Shown here: one piece after another, positions 53,902 to 64,000 of the stretch | Numbering within the stretch: position 1 is the first letter of the stretch | Layout of the letters: each line of letters begins with the position of its first letter | Translations under genes and position numbers: made by a program | From: Nibricoccus sp. | GTDB taxonomy: Bacteria > Verrucomicrobiota > Verrucomicrobiia > Opitutales > Opitutaceae | DNA length: 64,000 nucleotides | Direction: 5' to 3' | NCBI GenBank assembly: GCA_047602425.1 | Contig: JASGHG010000001.1 | Span: 3,072,001 to 3,136,000 of the forward strand | The notes under the pieces: model-generated | The model's input: only the letters and a program-made list of their open reading frames with translations | The model's database searches: none | What the model was told of the DNA's origin: nothing

Positions 53902-55230
53902 TTACGCAGCGCTGGAGGTATTGCGCAGTTGCAGCCGGCGTCGGAAATAGGACCGGCGTCGGTGTTCGGTAAATTCCGCGGAATACACCTTGCCGGCGAG
54001 CTCGAAAAATCCGCGGCGCAAAACCTCGGCTGACATGTTTTTCGGCTGAAAAACGATGTCGAACAGCGTGCATTTGTTCCAGACGTGAGGTTCGACCAGA
54101 CGTCCTTCCTGGGAGAGACGGGTATAGAGCGGTGTTCCCGGGAAAGGTGTCATTACCGTGAGTTGCACTTCGTAGAGTTCGCTTTGTTGAATGAATTCCC
54201 AGAGGCGTTCGAAGGAAGCGGGTGTATGCCGATCGAGACCGAGTACGAAGCAACCATTGACGGTGATGCCATGATCTTGAATGCGGCGAATGGCATCGAG
54301 GTAATGCGTGCGCTGACGGGCTTTCCAATTTCCTTTCAGCTCGATTCCTTCGGTGGCGTCGTCGGGGTCTTCGAGTCCAACCAAGATTTGCGCGCAACCC
54401 GCATCGTGCATTTTCTGCAGGAGAGCGTCGTCTTGAGCGACCGAGATGTCGGTTTCAGTAAACCAGCGGATATTTTCAGGAATGAGCGCATCCACCAAGG
54501 CGTGGCCATGACGGCGATCGGCGAAGGTGTTATCGTCGGCAAATTCAATGAATGGCGTTGGCCAGAATTCCTTGATGCGATGAAGTTCGGCAATGACTTT
54601 GGCGATGGGTTTGGTGCGGTAGGAGTGGTTTAGCCGAACGGAAGCTGCGCAAAATTCGCAATTCCAGGGACAGCCGCGGGCGGTCTGGATGGTGAGACGA
54701 TTGTAACGAGAAACGTCGAGAAGGTCGAAACGCGGCATCGGAGCTTCTGCGAGATCGAAAGGTCCGGACGCCCGGTACCGTGGACGGAGCTCGTTATTTT
54801 CGAGATCGCGCAGTAGGGCTGGCCAGACTGGTTCGGCTTCGCCGATAACGATGGCGTCGGCGTGGTGCGCGGCCTCGTCGGGACAGAGTGTGACGTGGAG
54901 TCCGCCGAGAATCACCCGCGTGCCCTGTCGCCGATAGCGTCCGGCGAGGACGTAGGCGTCGTCAATCATCGCTGTAAAACTGGAAATGGCCACGACGTCG
55001 AACGGACCGGGGAGATTTGCCTCGATTTCGGGTGCATGAATATCGGGGACTTCAACATAGGAAATTTCGTGGGACGAAGGCGTCAGGCCTGCAAGGGTGA
55101 GGAGACCGAGACTGGGCAGGGAGGCGATGACTTTGCTGCGCTCGACGAAGCCGGGGAGATTGAGGCCGATGGCAAGGAGTTCGGCATCTGCGGCGCGAAC
55201 TCCGGAAAGAGCAAGGAATCCGATTTTCAT
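53902..55230 (-). CDS. B12-binding-domain radical SAM protein
   Basis: PSLGLLTLAG, GGLHVT, GEAE, ARGCPWNCEFC (CX3CX2C), FADDN, TPFPGTPLY. Start at ATG 55230. Confidence 0.9.
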   Translation of the reverse strand: MKIGFLALSGVRAADAELLAIGLNLPGFVERSKVIASLPSLGLLTLAGLTPSSHEISYVEVPDIHAPEIEANLPGPFDVVAISSFTAMIDDAYVLAGRYRRQGTRVILGGLHVTLCPDEAAHHADAIVIGEAEPVWPALLRDLENNELRPRYRASGPFDLAEAPMPRFDLLDVSRYNRLTIQTARGCPWNCEFCAASVRLNHSYRTKPIAKVIAELHRIKEFWPTPFIEFADDNTFADRRHGHALVDALIPENIRWFTETDISVAQDDALLQKMHDAGCAQILVGLEDPDDATEGIELKGNWKARQRTHYLDAIRRIQDHGITVNGCFVLGLDRHTPASFERLWEFIQQSELYEVQLTVMTPFPGTPLYTRLSQEGRLVEPHVWNKCTLFDIVFQPKNMSAEVLRRGFFELAGKVYSAEFTEHRRRSYFRRRLQLRNTSSAA

Positions 55231-55598
55231 GAGAGATGCACCAAAAGCGTTACGATCCCGGCCAGGGTGCTGCCGGCTGGAATGAAAAACAGATGGCGAA
55301 ACGGCTTCCGCCATGCGGTGAGAAAGCAGTTGAGAGGCATGGCGACCATGGCGACGACGAGGAAACGCGAACCCCAGGTCGTCCATTCGGAGGGTGTAGC
55401 GATACTCAGAGCAAAGAGGATGTTGATCAAACCGATGCCGAAAAAAGCGATATGACCGAGGCGGACCATACGACGGGGGAACGAGTCATAACCGCCAAGC
55501 CAGCCATCACGATGAAAATACAGGCCGATCAACGCGCCGGAGAGAGCGCCGCCGAGAAACCCGGACCAGCCGACGACAAGATTAAGGGAAGAGCTCAT
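55227..55598 (-). CDS. Small 4-TM hypothetical membrane protein
   Basis: Four hydrophobic helices, WLGGYDSFPRRMVRLGHIAFFG. ATGA overlap with the radical SAM gene. Confidence 0.75.
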   Translation of the reverse strand: MSSSLNLVVGWSGFLGGALSGALIGLYFHRDGWLGGYDSFPRRMVRLGHIAFFGIGLINILFALSIATPSEWTTWGSRFLVVAMVAMPLNCFLTAWRKPFRHLFFIPAGSTLAGIVTLLVHLS

Positions 55599-56004
55599 CG
55601 GCTTTGGTGCCGAGGCGAACAAGAACGTCCTCGGTCAATTTTTTTTCGATATCACTGAAAAGACCTTCGAGTTGGTTGAGGCATTTTTCGTAGTCTCTGG
55701 AAGCTTTGCTCCAGAGTGCGCGGCCCTTTGCGGTCAGGGCGACGATGCGCTGTCGTCGGTCCTCTTTGTTTTCGAGATCCACGACCAGACCGTCGCGTGA
55801 CATACGCTTGAGCAGTCCGGTGACGTTGGAAGGATCGACGATGAGACTTGCGGCCAGATCGGAGGCGCGCAGGCCATCTTTTTGATCGGAGAGCAAATTC
55901 ATAACGTTGAATTGCGCGGCGGTCAGGTTGTGCGGAGAAAAGACGCGCTTGGCGGCTTTATCGAGGATCTGAGCGGTTTGGAAAACACGAAGAACGACTT
56001 GCAT
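55582..56004 (-). CDS. MarR family transcriptional regulator
   Basis: LTAAQFNVM, SNVTGLLKRM..DGLV, DRR..VALTAKG. Confidence 0.92.
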   Translation of the reverse strand: MQVVLRVFQTAQILDKAAKRVFSPHNLTAAQFNVMNLLSDQKDGLRASDLAASLIVDPSNVTGLLKRMSRDGLVVDLENKEDRRQRIVALTAKGRALWSKASRDYEKCLNQLEGLFSDIEKKLTEDVLVRLGTKADELFP

Positions 56005-56023
56005 GGCGGAAAATTTGTCAGAG

Positions 56024-56063
56024 AAAGTTGAGTGGTCAAATAAAAAGTTGAATCATCAACTAA
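56024..56063. promoter_or_regulatory. Tandem palindromic operator, probable MarR sites
   Basis: AGTTGA-GTGG-TCAAAT (56026) and AGTTGA-ATCA-TCAACT (56046), 20-bp period, just upstream of marR. Confidence 0.75.
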
Positions 56064-56157
56064 ACATGACATTCACCTGAATGCGCGGTGGTTTCGAAAA
56101 ATATTTTAAGCGGCGACTTGGCGGAAGGCGCGGTTTGCGCATGATCTGGATTTTTCC

Positions 56158-56994
56158 ATGGCCGACGTAACCAGTAGCAATGTAGCTCTTGCAGCGCAGC
56201 CCGAACCGGTGCAGCGGGAAATCACGCGTTTGTGTATCGTAACCGGTTTAACGCTGCTGCAGCACGGCTCGGAAAGCGCCTTGGTGGAATCCCTAACGCG
56301 CCGACTTGGCCTGGCATTGGGGGTGCGCAGCGTGGAGGTGGCGATCATGGCAAACGCGCTGACAGTCACGACCTTAAGTGACGATCATTGCATAACCACG
56401 GTCCGCCGTAATGAGGACCATGGAATCAACATGCATATGGTCACCGAAGTGCAGCGCGCGGTGCTCGATGTGGAGGAGGGGAGGCTCGATGCTACAGGCT
56501 ATCGTGTTCGTTTGGAGGCGATCAGGCCCGAGAAATATCCGCGCTGGTTGGTGGCGTTGATGATTGGTTTTTCGTGCGCTTGTTTTGCGCGATTGGCGCA
56601 AATGAGTTTACCGGCGGTAGAGGACCGGAGTTGGGACTGGAAGGGACTGGGGCTCACGTTCCTAGCGAGCAGCGCGGCCATGTTAACGCGCCAGTTGTTC
56701 GCTGCGCGGCATTTCAATCCGTTGGTGAATTTTTTTGTTTCGGCATTCGTGGCGACTTCGATCGCGGGTCAAGGGGTGATCTATAAGCTCGGACCGCATC
56801 CGAAAATCGCGATGGCGTCTTGTGTATTGTTGCTGGTTCCAGGATTTCCGATGATCAACTCGGTTTCCGATATGGTGAAAGGTTACATCAACACGGGTTT
56901 GTCGCGCGGCATGATGGCGGTGTTGCTGGGTGCGGCGACGTCGGCCGGCATTATTTTGGCGATGACAGTTTGGAATGTATGGGGGTGGCTATGA
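56158..56994 (+). CDS. yjjP: ThrE family exporter subunit (YjjP-like)
   Basis: LLQHGSESALVE, GINMHMVTEVQ, LLLVPGFPMINSVSDMVKG. Confidence 0.85.
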   Translation: MADVTSSNVALAAQPEPVQREITRLCIVTGLTLLQHGSESALVESLTRRLGLALGVRSVEVAIMANALTVTTLSDDHCITTVRRNEDHGINMHMVTEVQRAVLDVEEGRLDATGYRVRLEAIRPEKYPRWLVALMIGFSCACFARLAQMSLPAVEDRSWDWKGLGLTFLASSAAMLTRQLFAARHFNPLVNFFVSAFVATSIAGQGVIYKLGPHPKIAMASCVLLLVPGFPMINSVSDMVKGYINTGLSRGMMAVLLGAATSAGIILAMTVWNVWGWL

Positions 56995-57455
56995 ACACGC
57001 TGATTGAATTTCTGCAAAACATGTTACTCGCCGCGGTGCCGGCAGTGGGCTTTGGACTGGTGTTTAATGTGCCGCGTGGTGCGCTGGTGCTTTGTGCGGC
57101 GGGTGGCGCATTGGGACGAGGACTCCGCTATTTGTTGATCACGGGCGGCCTTCCGATTGAGCCGGCAACATTTGTGGCGGCGTCGGCTGTGAGCCTGCTT
57201 GGCATTTATGTGGCGCAGCGTTTCAGGGCGCATCCCAAAGTTTTTACGGTGGCGGCGATGATTCCGATGATTCCGGGTGTGCCATTTTTTACGGCATTGA
57301 TCGCAGTCGCGGAAATACAACGTCGCGGACTTACGCAGGATTTGTTGAATACCGCGATCAGTTCCGGGCTTCGCACGACGTTTATCGTCGCGGCGCTGGC
57401 GGTGGGGTTGGCTTTGCCGGGGTTACTCTTTTATCGACGAAAACCGGTGGTATGA
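56991..57455 (+). CDS. yjjB: ThrE_2 family exporter subunit (YjjB-like)
   Basis: AVPAVGFGLVFNVP, AHPKVFTVAAMIPMIPG, LFYRRKPVV. ATGA overlap. Confidence 0.85.
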   Translation: MNTLIEFLQNMLLAAVPAVGFGLVFNVPRGALVLCAAGGALGRGLRYLLITGGLPIEPATFVAASAVSLLGIYVAQRFRAHPKVFTVAAMIPMIPGVPFFTALIAVAEIQRRGLTQDLLNTAISSGLRTTFIVAALAVGLALPGLLFYRRKPVV

Positions 57456-57802
57456 AGCTCCTCGCGCGGCGGTAGATGGCCCCCAAGGTGGCCTGTAAGG
57501 CCCTCACGGGGAGTTATCTAGAAAGGAGTTCCTCGGGAGGACCGCTTATCTGTTGACGATAACAAGTCGGTTGCATTAGGTTACAACCAATTGCCTAAGA
57601 TAGACTAAAGAATATTCGTTTACTCGTTTTTTACGGTGTTACCCCTTTTATTACTACCTCAATGGGAGCCCCTTCGCCAGACGCAGAATCGTTTGGCAAC
57701 AGCAGGCATGAAAGCGTGGGGTGAGGTTGTGAATTGTATGAAGCGGCGAATTACGGAGTTGCGGAACAATTGCGTCCTGATCGGGACTGTAGCGGTGATT
57801 CC

Positions 57803-60800
57803 ATGCCAGTGAAAGGATCGCACCCTAACCCCCGTTGGCTTCCGCGTCGCCTGTTGCTGGCGATGTTTTGGCTTCTTGGATGGTTGAGTGCGTACGGTTT
57901 GGATCCAACGCGAAATCCCAGCCAATATCGTTTCGACGAATGGTCGCGCATTGACGGGTTGCCGTATCCGGCGATCCACGAGCTTTATCAAAGTGCCGAT
58001 GGGTTTTTGTGGATAGGAACAAGTTCTGGTGCGGCACGTTTTGACGGCATGAGTTTCAACGTGTTCACGAAGGCGACCGTCCCTGAGATGATCGATGACG
58101 AAGTGCATGCGTTTTGTGAGGACCGCGAAGGGCGGTTGTGGATGGGCACGGGTCGCGGGGTATTGTGGTATCGTGAGGGCAGGTGGTCGCGGCCCTTTAT
58201 GGGCAACGAAATCGACGACCACGCCGTGCATGCTTTCTGGCCCGAGACGGACGGCAGCATTTTAATTGCCCTGAGTGACAAAATCTACCGGTACAGCGAG
58301 GGTCAGGCTGAACAATTGAGACTTTCGGGCGACCCTGTTCTGTCGAAGATCACAGCTTTGTCACGTGGCACCAATGGCGAGCTGCGCATTTTCGGCGAAA
58401 ATTTCGTGCGCGTGCAGGGCGACCAGGCAAAAGTGATTTCCCAGGAAGACGGCTTGGTTTTCAATGAAATCAGGGCAAGCGGCCAGGACGACAACGGAGT
58501 TTTCTGGCTGGGGAGTTCGCGAGGTCTGCAGTCGGTGCAAAAGGACGGGTCGCTGGCACCGTTCGCGCCGCAACGGGGACCTTCGATCAACGCTGTCCGC
58601 AGCCTGTTGGTGGATCACGAACAAAATCTTTGGATCGGCACACCCAATGGACTTTATCGCTATACACGTGGTTCGGTGGAACCGGTGATCGTTCGCGGGG
58701 GCGAACCGCTCAATCATGTGCTCAGTTTGTTTGAGGATCGCGAAGGCAATATTTGGGGCGGCACCGACACCGGCCTGTTCCGCTTGAAGGACGTAAATGT
58801 AACCTCGTTCACGCGGCAGGAAGGACTTCAGTCCAATTCCATTCTCTGCGTGATGCAATCGAGGGACGGTAGCAAATGGGTCGGCACCTGGGGCGGTGGG
58901 CTCACGCATATCACCGATGAAGGCCGCGTAACCTTCAATCGTGCGAATGGCCTGGTCGAAGATGCCATTTCCGGTGTCGTGGAAGACGACCAAGGCGGGC
59001 TTTGGATCTGTTGGTATAGCGAGGGCATCAGCCTTCTGAAGAACGGCAAGTTCACGCATTATCGCAGCCGCGAGGGCTTGAACGAACGTGTTTGCGGAGC
59101 GGGCATGGACGAATCGGGCGCGATGTGGGTGGCGACACTGCATGGCGTCCGCCGGCTGGTGAACGGAGCCTTTGTCGAAGTATCCATTCCAGGAATACAA
59201 ATACCTGGCGCGCTGATGACCGATTCGCGCAAGCGCATCTGGATCGCGGGACGCAGTGGCGTGGGTTACATGGAAAAAGGACGGTGGTCGTTGATCGCCT
59301 CGGAGCCCGATGTCGCGAAACAAAAGATGCCCCGCCAGATTATTGAAGGCGCGGACGGCGATTATTGGATTTTGCGGGATGCCTTGGAGATTCAGCGCAT
59401 TCGCAAGGGTAAGGTTGAAACGTTCACGCTGCCATCCGTGCTCGGCAAGCTCACCTACGGTGGCGTTATCCACAACGGGGAAATCTGGATCACTTATCGC
59501 AACGGCATCTTCCGCGCGGCGCTCAACGAATTTGACGAAGTCGCTGCGGGAGAAAAAGAGCTGATCGAATACGTTTTGTACAACGAAGCCGACGGCATGC
59601 GCAGCCCCGCGCCTAATATTCCTGGGGTGCCCTCCGCCTGCGTCACGCGGGACGGCTCATTGTGGTTTTCCACGAGCAAAGGTATCGCGATCATTCACCC
59701 GGGCCACATCCGCCGGAATACCGTCGCGCCGAACGTGGTGATTCATCAAGTGACGGTCGACAAGGTCGAGCAACCGCTGACGACACTGCGCAATCTTCCT
59801 CCCTGCGACGGCGAACTAGCCTTTTATTTCACGGCGCTGAGCCTCACCGATCCCACGCAAAACCGTTACAAGTATCGGTTGTTTGGATACGACAAACGCT
59901 GGGTCGAAGCTGGAACGCGTCGCGAGGCCCATTACGGCAGCGTGCCGCCCGGCCGTTATCGTTTCCAAGTGATCGCGTGTAACAACGAAGGCGTTTGGAA
60001 TCCGCGCGGCACGGAATGCGAAATCGTGATTGCACCGCATTCCTATCAGACTTGGTGGTTCCGCGCGTTGCTGATTGGTTTGGGACTTTTGCTTTTCTCC
60101 GCCGTGCTTTTCTGGCGCACGCGCACGTTGCGTGGCCGCGAACGAGAATTACGGCGATTGGTTGAGGCTCGCACGCAGGATTTGAAGCAGGCGGTGGCTG
60201 CGGCCGAAGCTGCGAAGGAAGCGGCTGAAGCGGCGAGCCGCGCGAAGAGCGAATTCGTGGCAAACATGAGCCACGAAATCCGCACGCCGATGAATGGTGT
60301 CATTGGCATGACCGAGTTGGCGCTCGGTTTGTCGACTGATCCGGAGCAACGGATGTATCTAAAAACATTGGTTTCCTCGAGCGAAGCGTTGCTGACGGTG
60401 ATTAACGATATTCTGGACTTCTCCAAAATCGAATCAGGTAAACTCACGATCGATCCGATTGCGTTCAATTTTCAGGATTGTGTCGAGGGAGCGGTTGAGG
60501 CGATTGCGGTGCAGGCGGCGCGCAAGAATTTGGAGTTGGTCTGCGATATCGACTCGCAAACGCCCGCGGTGCTTGTGGGCGACGCCGTTCGCATCCGCCA
60601 GGTCGTATTGAATCTTTTGAGCAATGCTCTGAAGTTCACCGAGAGCGGCGAGATCGTCGTGCGTGCGCGGATGGAAAATCAGACCAGCGGTTTCGCCCGC
60701 ATGCATGTTTGCGTTTCCGACACGGGCATTGGCATTCCCGTGGATCGTCAGGAGGCGATTTTCTCCGCCTTTGTGCAGGCCGATAATTCCACGACCCGTC

Positions 60801-61816
60801 GTTACGGCGGCACCGGCCTTGGCCTTACGATCTGCCGCAAATTGATCGAATTGATGGGCGGCCGCATCTGGGTTGAGAGCGAGGTTGGCAAAGGAAGTCG
60901 TTTCCATTTTTCCATTGGACTTGCGCGGCCGGAATCCGCCGTGGCCGATCTTCCTCCGGCCGAAACTGGCGGCGTGGCGGGTTGGTCCATTCTGGTGGTT
61001 GAAACCAACCGTACGGTGGCGGCCGTAATCGCAGACATGGCGCGCCAACGGCAAATGCGGCCGGTCGTCGCACCGAGTGCCGCAGCCGGTTTGGGCTTGG
61101 TGCAGCAAATGCGTTCGGAAGCGGAACCGGCTTTCGATCTCGTAATGGTCGAGGAGCGCATGCCGGAAATGAACGCCTTCGCGATGATGCATGCTTTGCG
61201 TCTTGTGCCTGGTTATGAAAAGACGCCGGTCATTCTCCTTTCCACGCCCGATCATCAAGTCGACCTTCGCCGCTGCCGCGAGTACGGCATCGAGCACTTC
61301 CTGAAAAAACCGGTCCGACGCACGCGTTTCAACGAATGTCTGCGCGCCCTTTGCGAACAGAAGGCGGGCACTCGTTCGCCATTTGTTCCAGAACCGGTCT
61401 CTTCGCACGCCCGTCGTTTGCGCATCCTCGTCGCGGAGGACATGCCGGTGAACCAGACTGTGACCAGCAAGATCCTGGAAAAGCAGGGCCATCGGGTCGA
61501 GGTCGCGCCCGACGGTGTGACCGCGCTGGAAATGTATCAGAAGAACAAATACGACATGATCCTGATGGACGTGCAGATGCCACGCATGGACGGCTACGAG
61601 GCCACCCGCCGCATCCGTTCGATCGAGATCAAGGGCGATCATCATACTTTGATCGTTGCACTCACCGCGCACGCGATGAAGGGCGATGCGGACAAGTGCC
61701 ACATGGCCGGCATGGACGCCTATCTGTGCAAACCGCTGCGGTCGCAGGAGCTTTTTGCCCTGATCGAACAACGCTTTCCTTCGCCGGATACAGACAACTT
61801 CGTGCTGAATTCTTAA
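57803..61816 (+). CDS. Hybrid sensor histidine kinase: beta-propeller (Reg_prop) / Y_Y_Y sensor, HisKA, HATPase, two receiver domains
   Basis: Repeated [46 protein letters not shown]. Confidence 0.93.
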
Positions 61817-61857: not shown

Positions 61858-62220
61858 TTATACCGGCCAATAAGTCCCGCAGTCGCGTCGGCCCGCAATG
61901 CTCGGAAGGTAGAGGTAACCTTCGACCATTGAGACGTTGTTAGGTGGTTGCAGCCGGATCGGTACGCGTTTGTAGAGGCCTTCGTCGAGGCCTTCCAAGC
62001 GATCAAGTTTGGCGAGACAGTCTGCATCGACGGCCCAAATTTCGCCTTCAATCGGATTTCCGTTCGTTGGGACGTCGACCATGCCGGGATAGGCGCCGAT
62101 TGAGTAGAGCTTATAGAGTGGTTCGGTTTTGGCGATGGCAATAAACTGTTGTCCGGCCATCAGATGATGGTTGCTCCCGCCGTGTTTGAGCGTGCCGTAA
62201 ACGAAAACTTGATGCTTCAT
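61858..62220 (-). CDS. Gamma-glutamylcyclotransferase (AIG2-like/GGACT) family protein
   Basis: VFVYGTLKHG..NH, YPGM, IEGEIW, LDRLEG...YKR. Start at ATG 62220. Confidence 0.88.
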   Translation of the reverse strand: MKHQVFVYGTLKHGGSNHHLMAGQQFIAIAKTEPLYKLYSIGAYPGMVDVPTNGNPIEGEIWAVDADCLAKLDRLEGLDEGLYKRVPIRLQPPNNVSMVEGYLYLPSIAGRRDCGTYWPV

Positions 62221-62267
62221 GAAGAAAAGAACGGAAGCGAAGAGCCAGAGCACGAACCGTGCGAAAA

Positions 62268-63146
62268 TCAGATCGGAGAAGCGGAGGGGAGCGCGAGCAC
62301 TTCGACAATCACGGCCGTGGTATTGTCCCGGCCGGATTCCTGAACCGATTCCTCGACAATTGTGCGGGCGAGATCGTGGATCGAAGTATTGGAGCGCAGG
62401 ATTTCTTCGATCCGCCGATCCCAGAGTCCATCAGTCAGGCCGTCGCTACAGATCAAGAAGCGGTCGCCGGGCTGGGTGCCGACGGCGCCGACGTGGGGGT
62501 CGATGATCTGATTGCCTGCCCCTAGGGCTTGGTTCAGGGAGTTGCGTTGAGGGTGGGCGCGGGCCTCGCGTTCGTTGATCCGGCCCTTGCGCCGCAGCCA
62601 GCCCACATGGGTGTGGTCATGGGTGATTTGGGAAAAGCCGCCGATTTTGGGCAGGTAGTAGATGCGGCTGTCGCCGATGTGCCCGAAATACATCCAGCCG
62701 GGCGTGAACCAACAAAGACTGAGCGTGGCGCCCATGCCGGCGCATTCCTCGTAGCTGCGGTCGAGCTGAATCATCTCCTGGTGAATCGCGGAAAAAACTT
62801 CGGGAAGAATATCGGCGAAGTCGCTGTTGCCGCCCTGCGCTCCCATACGGAAACTGCGCGGAAGGAGGCGCGTGATTTTCTCCACTGCGATCTTGCTCGC
62901 AAATTCGCCGGAATTCGCGCCGCCCATGCCATCGCTCACGGCGAAGACAAAGTCCATGTTGGCCAGGGGAGCTTCGCCGATTTTTCCGAGGTAGTTGACG
63001 TGGTGTCCGTCGAAGGTGAGGGCGAGAAACGAGTCCTCGTTGTTGGCGCGGACACGACCGCGATGGGTCATGCCGGACCAAACGAGTTGACAGGGAAAAG
63101 GAGGCTGGCTGGGTACGGGGGCTTGCATGCTGGAGGAAAGAATCAC
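62268..63146 (-). CDS. PP2C-family Ser/Thr protein phosphatase
   Basis: GRVRANNED, VSDGMGG, GMGATL, HIGDSR, LICSDGL, GRDNTT. Confidence 0.93.
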   Translation of the reverse strand: MILSSSMQAPVPSQPPFPCQLVWSGMTHRGRVRANNEDSFLALTFDGHHVNYLGKIGEAPLANMDFVFAVSDGMGGANSGEFASKIAVEKITRLLPRSFRMGAQGGNSDFADILPEVFSAIHQEMIQLDRSYEECAGMGATLSLCWFTPGWMYFGHIGDSRIYYLPKIGGFSQITHDHTHVGWLRRKGRINEREARAHPQRNSLNQALGAGNQIIDPHVGAVGTQPGDRFLICSDGLTDGLWDRRIEEILRSNTSIHDLARTIVEESVQESGRDNTTAVIVEVLALPSASPI

Positions 63147-63556
63147 TGCGCGGCGGAAGGCTTGAGCGAGGGCTGACCGGGCTCATCGAGGAGCGTGGCG
63201 AATTCGAAATCGATCAGACAGAAACGCCCGTCGGAGATCCGGTAGGTGACGTTGCGCAAAAAAGGGTCTTCGTGACGAACACCGTAGCTTTCGAGTTCGG
63301 TGTAGAGCTCTTTCATGCGTTCCTCGCTGAGGTGATCCACCCGCGTGCCGCAATTGGTGGTAACGATCTTAAGGATTTCGGGGTCGGTGCTGAGGATCTT
63401 TGGAACGAAATCGCAACCGCGGTTTTCAAGGTAGCGCAGAACTCGGATCTCATGCTCAAAACGCTCTTTGGCGAGGTGTCCTTTGAAGATTTTGTGCACC
63501 AAGCCATCGTAGCCAATCCGGACGAGGGCGCGTGGCGTATCTTTGACTTGTTGCAT
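63143..63556 (-). CDS. Minimal protein-kinase-like protein (137 aa)
   Basis: VHK (beta3 Lys), ERFEHE (alphaC Glu), RHEDPFLRNV (HxDx4N), LIDFEFA (DFx). Confidence 0.75.
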   Translation of the reverse strand: MQQVKDTPRALVRIGYDGLVHKIFKGHLAKERFEHEIRVLRYLENRGCDFVPKILSTDPEILKIVTTNCGTRVDHLSEERMKELYTELESYGVRHEDPFLRNVTYRISDGRFCLIDFEFATLLDEPGQPSLKPSAAQ

Positions 63557-63678
63557 GGTAAAAAAGTGAGCGATTTTGAGCGGCAAGCCCAGCGGCAACC
63601 TCACAAGACTGGCCAAAAATTGGCAAGAATGAGCGATTCAGCGCGAAATTTGGTATGAATTATATTTCTAGATCGCGC

Positions 63679-63694
63679 TGGCACATCCCTTGCT
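63679..63694 (+). promoter_or_regulatory. Sigma54 (-24/-12) promoter upstream of glutamine synthetase
   Basis: TGGCAC-ATCCC-TTGCT matches the TGGCAC-N5-TTGCW consensus exactly. Confidence 0.85.
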
Positions 63695-63782
63695 AATGCT
63701 ATGCGCAGTTTTCATGAGAGACCGCTCCGAATAAATATTTCTCGCGGTCACCCACGCAAACCCTCTACTCAACCACCCTCTT

Positions 63783-64000
63783 ATGGCCAAATACAAACTG
63801 GAATACATCTGGCTCGACGGTTACCAACCTGTGGCAAACCTTCGCAGCAAAACTCAGATCAAGGAATTCGCCAGCTTCCCGAAGCTCGAAGACCTCCCCG
63901 CTTGGGGTTTTGACGGAAGCTCGACCCGTCAAGCTGAAGGCAAGAGCTCGGACATCGTTCTGAAGCCTGTCGCCGTCTTCCCGGACAGCACCCGGAAGAA
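63783..64000 (+). CDS. glnII: Glutamine synthetase type II, N-terminal part (runs off the window)
   Basis: Translated by hand (absent from the ORF track): MAKYKLEYIWLDGYQPVANLRSKTQIK...WGFDGSSTRQAEGKSSD. Confidence 0.9.
   Translation, partial: MAKYKLEYIWLDGYQPVANLRSKTQIKEFASFPKLEDLPAWGFDGSSTRQAEGKSSDIVLKPVAVFPDSTRK

Follow-up and report, generated by a model that had tools for sequence, protein, structure and literature searches.

Described systems that resemble the locus

GlnE, which serves glutamine synthetases (GS) of the GSI-beta type, combines a writer and an eraser activity that are tied to a GS, often on a single polypeptide, and operates in a GlnD-PII background. The gene pair described here, which encodes a predicted minimal protein-kinase-like protein (hereafter the mini-kinase) and a PP2C-type phosphatase in the neighborhood of the GSII gene glnII, would work like GlnE and resembles it in these traits, but it differs in its kinase and PP2C folds, in the predicted chemistry (phosphorylation) and in its target, a GSII; the distributions of GlnE and of the pair are nearly complementary. 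Judged by the features tested, the pair is not a member of the GlnE, Hanks, ArkI or Bud32 families. AceK, the isocitrate dehydrogenase kinase/phosphatase, is likewise dedicated to one metabolic enzyme and carries out both reactions in a single active site, while the pair distributes them over two separate folds and concerns nitrogen rather than carbon flux.

A modified enzyme of the same class (GSII) is found in mammals: mouse GS is reported to be inactivated when PKA phosphorylates Thr301, a residue of the glutamate flap (PMC6536897). A threonine is retained at this flap position here, as Thr278; however, a general kinase acts on the mammalian enzyme, whereas the modification predicted here would involve a minimal kinase that is dedicated and gene-linked and comes with a phosphatase of its own. 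Adjacent kinase and PP2C genes are known from the PrkC-PrpC, Stk1-Stp1 and PknB-PstP systems, and the listed targets of PrkC in B. subtilis include GlnA (PMC6213207). In contrast to these Hanks-type kinase/PP2C operons, the present locus encodes a soluble kinase of 137 amino acids without glycine-rich loop, activation segment or sensor domains, and is strictly tied to one metabolic gene. Truncated kinase folds also occur in ArkI/Ark1, Rio and Bud32, and the DFE motif is shared with ArkI, but the mini-kinase possesses HxD instead of HGQ, has no basic C-terminal helix and has a PP2C partner. The rhizobial glnII-GstI arrangement involves the same GSII clade, a sigma54-driven glnII and a regulatory gene upstream of it; however, GstI is a small translation inhibitor, and rhizobia additionally use GSI and GlnE, while GSII is usually the sole GS here.

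Literature searches yielded no description of a kinase-PP2C-GSII system; older papers on the modification of Rhizobium GSII could bear on its novelty. Bacterial GSII is described as devoid of the adenylylation that switches GSI, and the question addressed is how cells that possess only GSII keep an ammonium shock from draining their ATP and glutamate; the locus offers a candidate writer, eraser, substrate and residue, all accessible to testing with three small soluble proteins. If the proposal made below is true, it would assign a function to one of the smallest kinase cores, which belongs to a family with about 7,000 sequence clusters.

Organization of the locus and its promoters

The locus is situated at the end of the window, i.e., the whole stretch of 64,000 nucleotides of Nibricoccus sp. 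DNA that was analyzed (Table 1). The sequence-only reading of this DNA had described a three-gene set (kinase, PP2C, and a gene with a gamma-glutamyl cyclotransferase fold, GGCT) divergent from a sigma54-driven glnII, and this arrangement was confirmed, with all three genes co-oriented on the minus strand. Their co-transcription is inferred from the spacing of the genes.

Table 1. Features of the kinase-PP2C-GGCT/glnII locus (window coordinates).
Feature	Position	Strand	Remarks
Predicted protein-kinase-like gene	63143..63556	-	137 aa; APH 25.6 bits over 33 residues, cut-off 23.2
PP2C/PPM phosphatase gene	62268..63146	-	PP2C_2 63.3 bits, cut-off 24; dedicated subfamily
GGACT/AIG2-like gamma-glutamyl cyclotransferase-fold gene (GGCT)	61858..62220	-	120 aa; GGACT 79.7 bits, cut-off 22.8; accessory
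Divergent intergenic region kinase/glnII	63557..63782	.	226 bp
Predicted sigma54 -24/-12 promoter of glnII	63679..63694	+	motif in 101/105 homologous regions
glnII, 5' part	63783..64000	+	343 aa; runs to 64814, past the window end; rhizobial-type GSII

The GTGA overlap between the kinase and PP2C genes, also reported in that earlier reading, is indeed present in the sequence (63146-63143), but its GTG may not be the real PP2C start, because three relatives of the same genus use an ATG that follows a short gap. The matching ATG here (63128) is the likelier start and would yield a PP2C protein of 286 amino acids, compared with 292 from the GTG at 63146. An NTGA overlap is found in 54 of the 105 paired kinase-PP2C loci, and the two genes are fused in eight more.

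The predicted sigma54 promoter serves glnII only: the motif pointing towards glnII recurs in 101 of 105 distinct homologous spacers, against 0.6 expected by shuffling, while none of the 105 homologous intergenic regions contains such a motif towards the kinase. Of the 105 spacers, 53 possess a CTTGCCA-like element 25-50 nt upstream of the kinase start (3.4 expected), which we infer to be a separate sigma70-type promoter for the kinase.

In the wider surroundings, a gene for a 1360-amino-acid beta-propeller hybrid histidine kinase (57734-61816) converges on the GGCT gene, and a PAS/histidine-kinase gene cluster is located downstream of glnII, beyond the window end (64967-72131); in other genera, neither is a conserved neighbor of the locus. 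The genes for a B12-binding radical SAM protein, a MarR regulator and a ThrE exporter (53902-57455) are ordinary.

The mini-kinase

The mini-kinase, present as a single copy in the source genome, retains K22, E36, H95-x-D97, R101, N102 and D116-F-E, and K22, E36, H95, D97, N102 and D116 are invariant in all 76 aligned sequences. As predicted from the sequence, these positions provide the beta3 lysine, the alphaC glutamate, the catalytic HxD..N and the metal-binding aspartate of the kinase-like superfamily. Its structure model (pLDDT 92.8) has a bilobed kinase fold that superimposes on Rio1, Rio2 and Ark1 with Z scores of about 12 and an rmsd of 2.5-3.3 over 112-123 residues; Rio2, Rio1, ULK4 and Ark1 tie as structural matches (Z 11.6-12.1), and Bud32-like kinases are also among them. 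The best Foldseek match is the RNA kinase Ark1 (E 6e-7, 28% identity), and the only Pfam family above its cut-off is APH. The chain stops about 20 residues past the DFE motif, the glycine-rich loop is absent, and the parts of the C-lobe that bind peptide substrates are missing.

Membership in several established kinase families was considered and rejected. With no GxGxxG motif, no activation segment or APE motif, no subdomains VIII-XI and no match to Pkinase, the protein is not a Hanks-type Ser/Thr kinase. ArkI is characterized in PMC9095486 by an HGQ loop and a YKR helix; the mini-kinase has an H-E/D-D loop with D97 in 76 of 76 sequences, its model is devoid of a basic C-terminal helix with a YKR motif, and its core is slightly acidic (mean net charge of -1.7 across 105 sequences). 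Assignment to the Bud32/KEOPS kinases fails on TIGR03724 (23.9 bits versus a cut-off of 125), although JGI labels many members as Bud32.

A total of 7,063 relatives of similar length were found, and the database labels on family members read Bud32 or 'phosphatase'. The named relatives among the best 80 of 581 matches are almost all from Verrucomicrobiota, chiefly Opitutaceae, with one from Planctomicrobium. A metagenome scan aimed at a divergent clade returned ordinary members (54-84% identity), a cluster look-up of the most distant homologues named one, a Pirellulales protein, and an Atlas search led to the family's own clusters. In one genome (G014:C111:168015-168386, locus L054), a second, divergent copy (46%) has neither PP2C nor glnII adjoining it. 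The catalytic loop reads H-x-D-x-x-x-R-N, with the arginine four positions past the aspartate in 75 of 76 sequences, which we take to be a trait of tyrosine kinases. K5, T7 and R9, as well as Cys48, Cys69 and Cys113, are highly conserved.

The phosphatase partner

The sequence of the partner protein contains the motifs NED, SDGMGG, IGDSR, SDG and GRDN (at 36, 71, 157, 234 and 272), as expected for a putative PP2C/PPM phosphatase with metal-binding aspartates. It is not the Stp1/IreP equivalog, as it scores 190.9 bits with NF033484, for which the cut-off is 230.

From 127 genome loci, removal of three duplicates left 124 distinct ones, 120 of them with enough flanking sequence; in 111 of these 120, and in 68 of 71 metagenome loci, a PP2C gene is located downstream of the kinase gene or fused to it. 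Single-chain kinase-PP2C fusions were found as 11 distinct locus proteins, and 13 of the 27 longer database matches to the kinase that were scanned contain a PP2C domain above the cut-off. One natural fusion was modeled from a 16-row alignment with a pTM of 0.67 and a low-confidence linker. In a panel of 80 genomes picked from the earlier results (49 with and 31 without the kinase), a PP2C orthologue (at least 49% identity) is present in 49 of 49 kinase genomes and in 0 of 31 others; genome G022 has a PP2C paralogue only (39%).

Co-inheritance of the pair with GSII

Among 301 genomes of the phylum, the kinase was found in 56 and GSII in 62, and all 56 kinase carriers fall within these 62, so that the kinase is missing from each of the 239 genomes without GSII. 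The same 27 genomes have both kinase and GSII in a set of 41 relatives that shares a few genomes with the larger sample. A survey of 201 planctomycete genomes recovered the kinase once, in a genome with a GSII of the same clade; 15 of the 16 GSII-containing planctomycetes are without it. No kinase without GSII was found among the 301 + 41 + 201 + 5 genomes searched.

The kinase gene and glnII are arranged head-to-head at 104 of the 120 genome loci and at 52 of 66 metagenome loci, sets that are both biased towards the window's family, with most loci coming from one order. The kinase is located apart from glnII in 11 genomes that nevertheless possess GSII (G008, G044, G118, G252, G276, G281 and G333-G337); G072 was excluded from this group because both of its genes are at contig ends. 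At least three different layouts of kinase, PP2C and glnII exist: glnII is placed head-to-tail ahead of a fused kinase-PP2C gene on two metagenome contigs (L259, L275), PP2C alone faces glnII in G118, and the kinase alone does so in G255. No GS of any type was found in G003 and G162, which are probably assembly gaps rather than co-losses. The genomes are kin, and relatively few gains and losses underlie these co-occurrence counts; we nevertheless regard the functional tie of the kinase-PP2C pair to GSII as strong and hold it with high confidence.

Several loci deviate in their gene content. A duplicate glnII in G004 (L212) is near an amtB-like gene, and the kinase pair is absent there; the pair adjoins amtB-glnK on one metagenome contig (L285:5760-9171), with glnII three genes off on the other side; and at L043:4092-5513 and L174, a GSI gene directly follows kinase-PP2C(-GGCT), with glnII on the opposite side.

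Other glutamine synthetases, GlnE and the PII background

Of the 49 kinase carriers in the 80-genome panel, three have GlnE, and all three also possess a true GSI; among the 31 other genomes, GlnE is present in 12. True GSI was detected in 4 of 49 kinase genomes versus 13 of 31 others, and GSIII in none of the 49 versus 12 of 31; GSII is thus the sole bona fide GS found in 45 of the 49 carriers. Among phylum genomes lacking both GSII and the kinase, 21 of 23 have GSI or GSIII. GSII is also the only bona fide GS found in the source genome, whose other GS-like gene does not reach the GlnA cut-off and belongs to a urea carboxylase/allophanate hydrolase cluster (G000:C1:4399708-4413162) that, by names read from the sequence, also encodes a NikR-like regulator and an ABC transporter.

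All three carriers tested (the source genome G000, G007 and G092) possess GlnD, above its cut-off, and PII. With GlnD and PII in place and GlnE mostly absent, what the classical cascade lacks is GlnE. PII of the source genome possesses Ser49 and Tyr51; comparison of the three carriers with the kinase-less G290, which also has GlnD, revealed no difference in the PII T-loop.

The GSII clade and a candidate phosphorylation site

The GSII encoded at the locus finds its best PDB matches among GSII enzymes and is 72-74% identical to rhizobial GlnII; its NF041605 score of 367.8 is under the cut-off of 500. A quick tree of 66 of the GSII sequences places all kinase-associated ones among them in one clade (SH-aLRT 100), which also contains rhizobial GlnII and the GSII of the planctomycete G478. 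The latter genome, which consists of one contig, has GSI and GlnE, and the kinase was not found in it; nor was the kinase found for rhizobia in a collection of plasmids. For S. meliloti, PMC5127829 describes GSI as adenylylated and GSII as not, and glnII as an NtrC/sigma54 target. In the same quick tree, rhizobial GlnII nests within the verrucomicrobial kinase-associated GSII clade (L227-L233, L208). One genome (G118:C32, L208) has a second, rhizobial-like glnII, faced by a 65-amino-acid gene and with a glutaminase-like gene nearby, which reflects either transfer or contamination.

Thr301 of mouse GS corresponds in alignment coordinates to Thr278, which is present in 121 of 121 kinase-associated GSII proteins and invariant in all 149 GSII sequences compared; since it is universal in GSII, it is a precedent, not a signature of kinase carriers. 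Position 280 is a leucine in 120 of 121 kinase-associated GSII proteins, a lysine in 7 of 7 rhizobial ones and a histidine in G478. More generally, E264, L280 and R332 are nearly invariant in the 121 proteins and changed in all seven rhizobial sequences and G478, with aspartate at 264 and glutamine or valine at 332 in rhizobial GlnII, as relaxed recognition by the kinase would predict, but shared ancestry could explain this pattern as well. No serine or threonine separating the kinase-associated GSII proteins from those of G478 and the rhizobia was found; T70 is present in G478 also.

The cyclotransferase gene

The GGCT protein possesses the GGACT domain, with E76 in an LEG motif at what we take to be the position of the catalytic glutamate. 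Its gene is present in 73 of 117 loci; in the 80-genome panel, 22 of the 49 kinase carriers have it, compared with 2 of the 31 other genomes. Family f18 yielded no match to the window query in any of its 13 genomes, 12 of which carry the kinase. GGCT is an accessory member of the system and not part of its core. Its occurrence beside glnII in two unrelated layouts (see the last section) suggests a GS-related job, and it may serve as an optional helper that clears gamma-glutamyl amines arising as side products.

Proposed function and alternatives

The pair is inherited with GSII, mostly in bacteria devoid of GlnE, so it likely acts as an on/off control of ammonium assimilation through phosphorylation of GSII. 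We give a probability of about 55% to the proposal that it is a reversible phosphorylation switch on GSII standing in for GlnE. In this scheme, GSII would be the direct substrate of the mini-kinase, which would phosphorylate and inactivate it when ammonium rises, whereas the PP2C phosphatase would restore its activity; the pair would be expressed from its own non-sigma54 promoter and be controlled by ligands or PII, with Thr278 in the glutamate flap as the candidate phosphosite. Three elements of this scheme had been put forward in the sequence-only reading and held up in the genome comparisons: the linkage of kinase to glnII, whose conservation was set there as a test, the pairing of a writer with an eraser (now with recurring fusions) and the idea of filling GlnE's place. 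Its other suggestions fared less well, as neither ATP-grasp nor transglutaminase nor alpha-E genes are among the recurring neighbor families within 6-7 kb (families read from sequence), which speaks against a gamma-glutamyl tagging or storage route, and GGCT, a member of the operon as described there, proved to be accessory.

Same-clade GSII enzymes without the kinase (in rhizobia and G478), the 15 planctomycetes with a GSII and no such kinase, the three carriers that keep GlnE, the missing peptide-binding part of the C-lobe and the RNA kinase as best match all count against this proposal. The pair could control GSII via another protein, such as PII at Ser49, the sigma54 activator of glnII or a translation regulator, and would then set the amount of GSII rather than its activity. 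In cyanobacteria, PII is described as phosphorylated at Ser49 and the mark as erased by the phosphatase PphA, with the kinase unidentified (PMC4285133), and Ser49 is present here; rhizobial glnII is preceded by a small gene whose annotation is that of the translation inhibitor GstI (PMC3596328), and a DUF2735 gene (61-69 amino acids) faces glnII in 2 of 4 annotated rhizobial regions. The metagenome locus with the pair beside amtB-glnK fits such a role too. We consider it unlikely, however, as the PII T-loop is the same with or without the kinase, and across genomes the pair tracks GSII, not PII.

Action of the kinase on a small molecule or RNA in an APH-, Kdo- or ArkI-like manner, for example joining GGCT in repairing or detoxifying a metabolite related to GS, would agree with Ark1 as top Foldseek match, with APH as sole Pfam match, with the missing peptide-binding subdomains and with GGCT beside glnII in two unrelated arrangements. 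Yet the kinase is consistently partnered by a PP2C protein phosphatase and not by KptA, the HGQ loop and YKR helix of ArkI are absent from the slightly acidic kinase core, and a Hanks-type protein kinase occupies the same place in six other genomes; we judge this explanation to be more doubtful still. Least probable of all, in our estimation, is that the genes merely travelled together as a block and that the pair serves general signaling. Most loci come from one order and share ancestry, the relatives listed are the best 80 of 581, and GSII enzymes of this clade function in rhizobia and G478 although the kinase is absent there, but no genome in any of the surveys has the kinase without GSII, and the co-occurrence persists where the genes are apart and across at least three layouts. 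Phosphorylation of GSII remains the reading that we prefer.

A Hanks-type kinase beside glnII in other genomes

In all six GSII genomes of the phylum without the mini-kinase, the gene immediately preceding glnII encodes a Hanks-type kinase, and a GGACT gene, whose product is 27% identical to the window GGCT, is just ahead of it in five of the six. No phosphatase gene was recognized beside these loci. Five of the genomes belong to family f45 and one to f60; an orthologue (at least 69%) of the f45 kinase is present in those five only, of 301 genomes, and the arrangement represents one or two events. The Hanks-type kinase at these loci (L325-L330) is a second candidate GSII kinase.

More tentatively, and at somewhat less than even odds, we suggest that GSII-only Verrucomicrobia swapped GlnE for a phosphorylation cycle in which a kinase core of 125 residues docks onto GSII and phosphorylates its glutamate flap, with a cognate PP2C as counterpart; that a second lineage did likewise with a Hanks-type kinase; and that rhizobial GlnII is a branch that lost the switch.

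The order GGCT - Hanks kinase - glnII is conserved at L325-L330 (G194, G083, G313, G074, G275 and G117), which belong to another class of the phylum, and the gene order in G194 is kinase - glnII - amtB - glnK.
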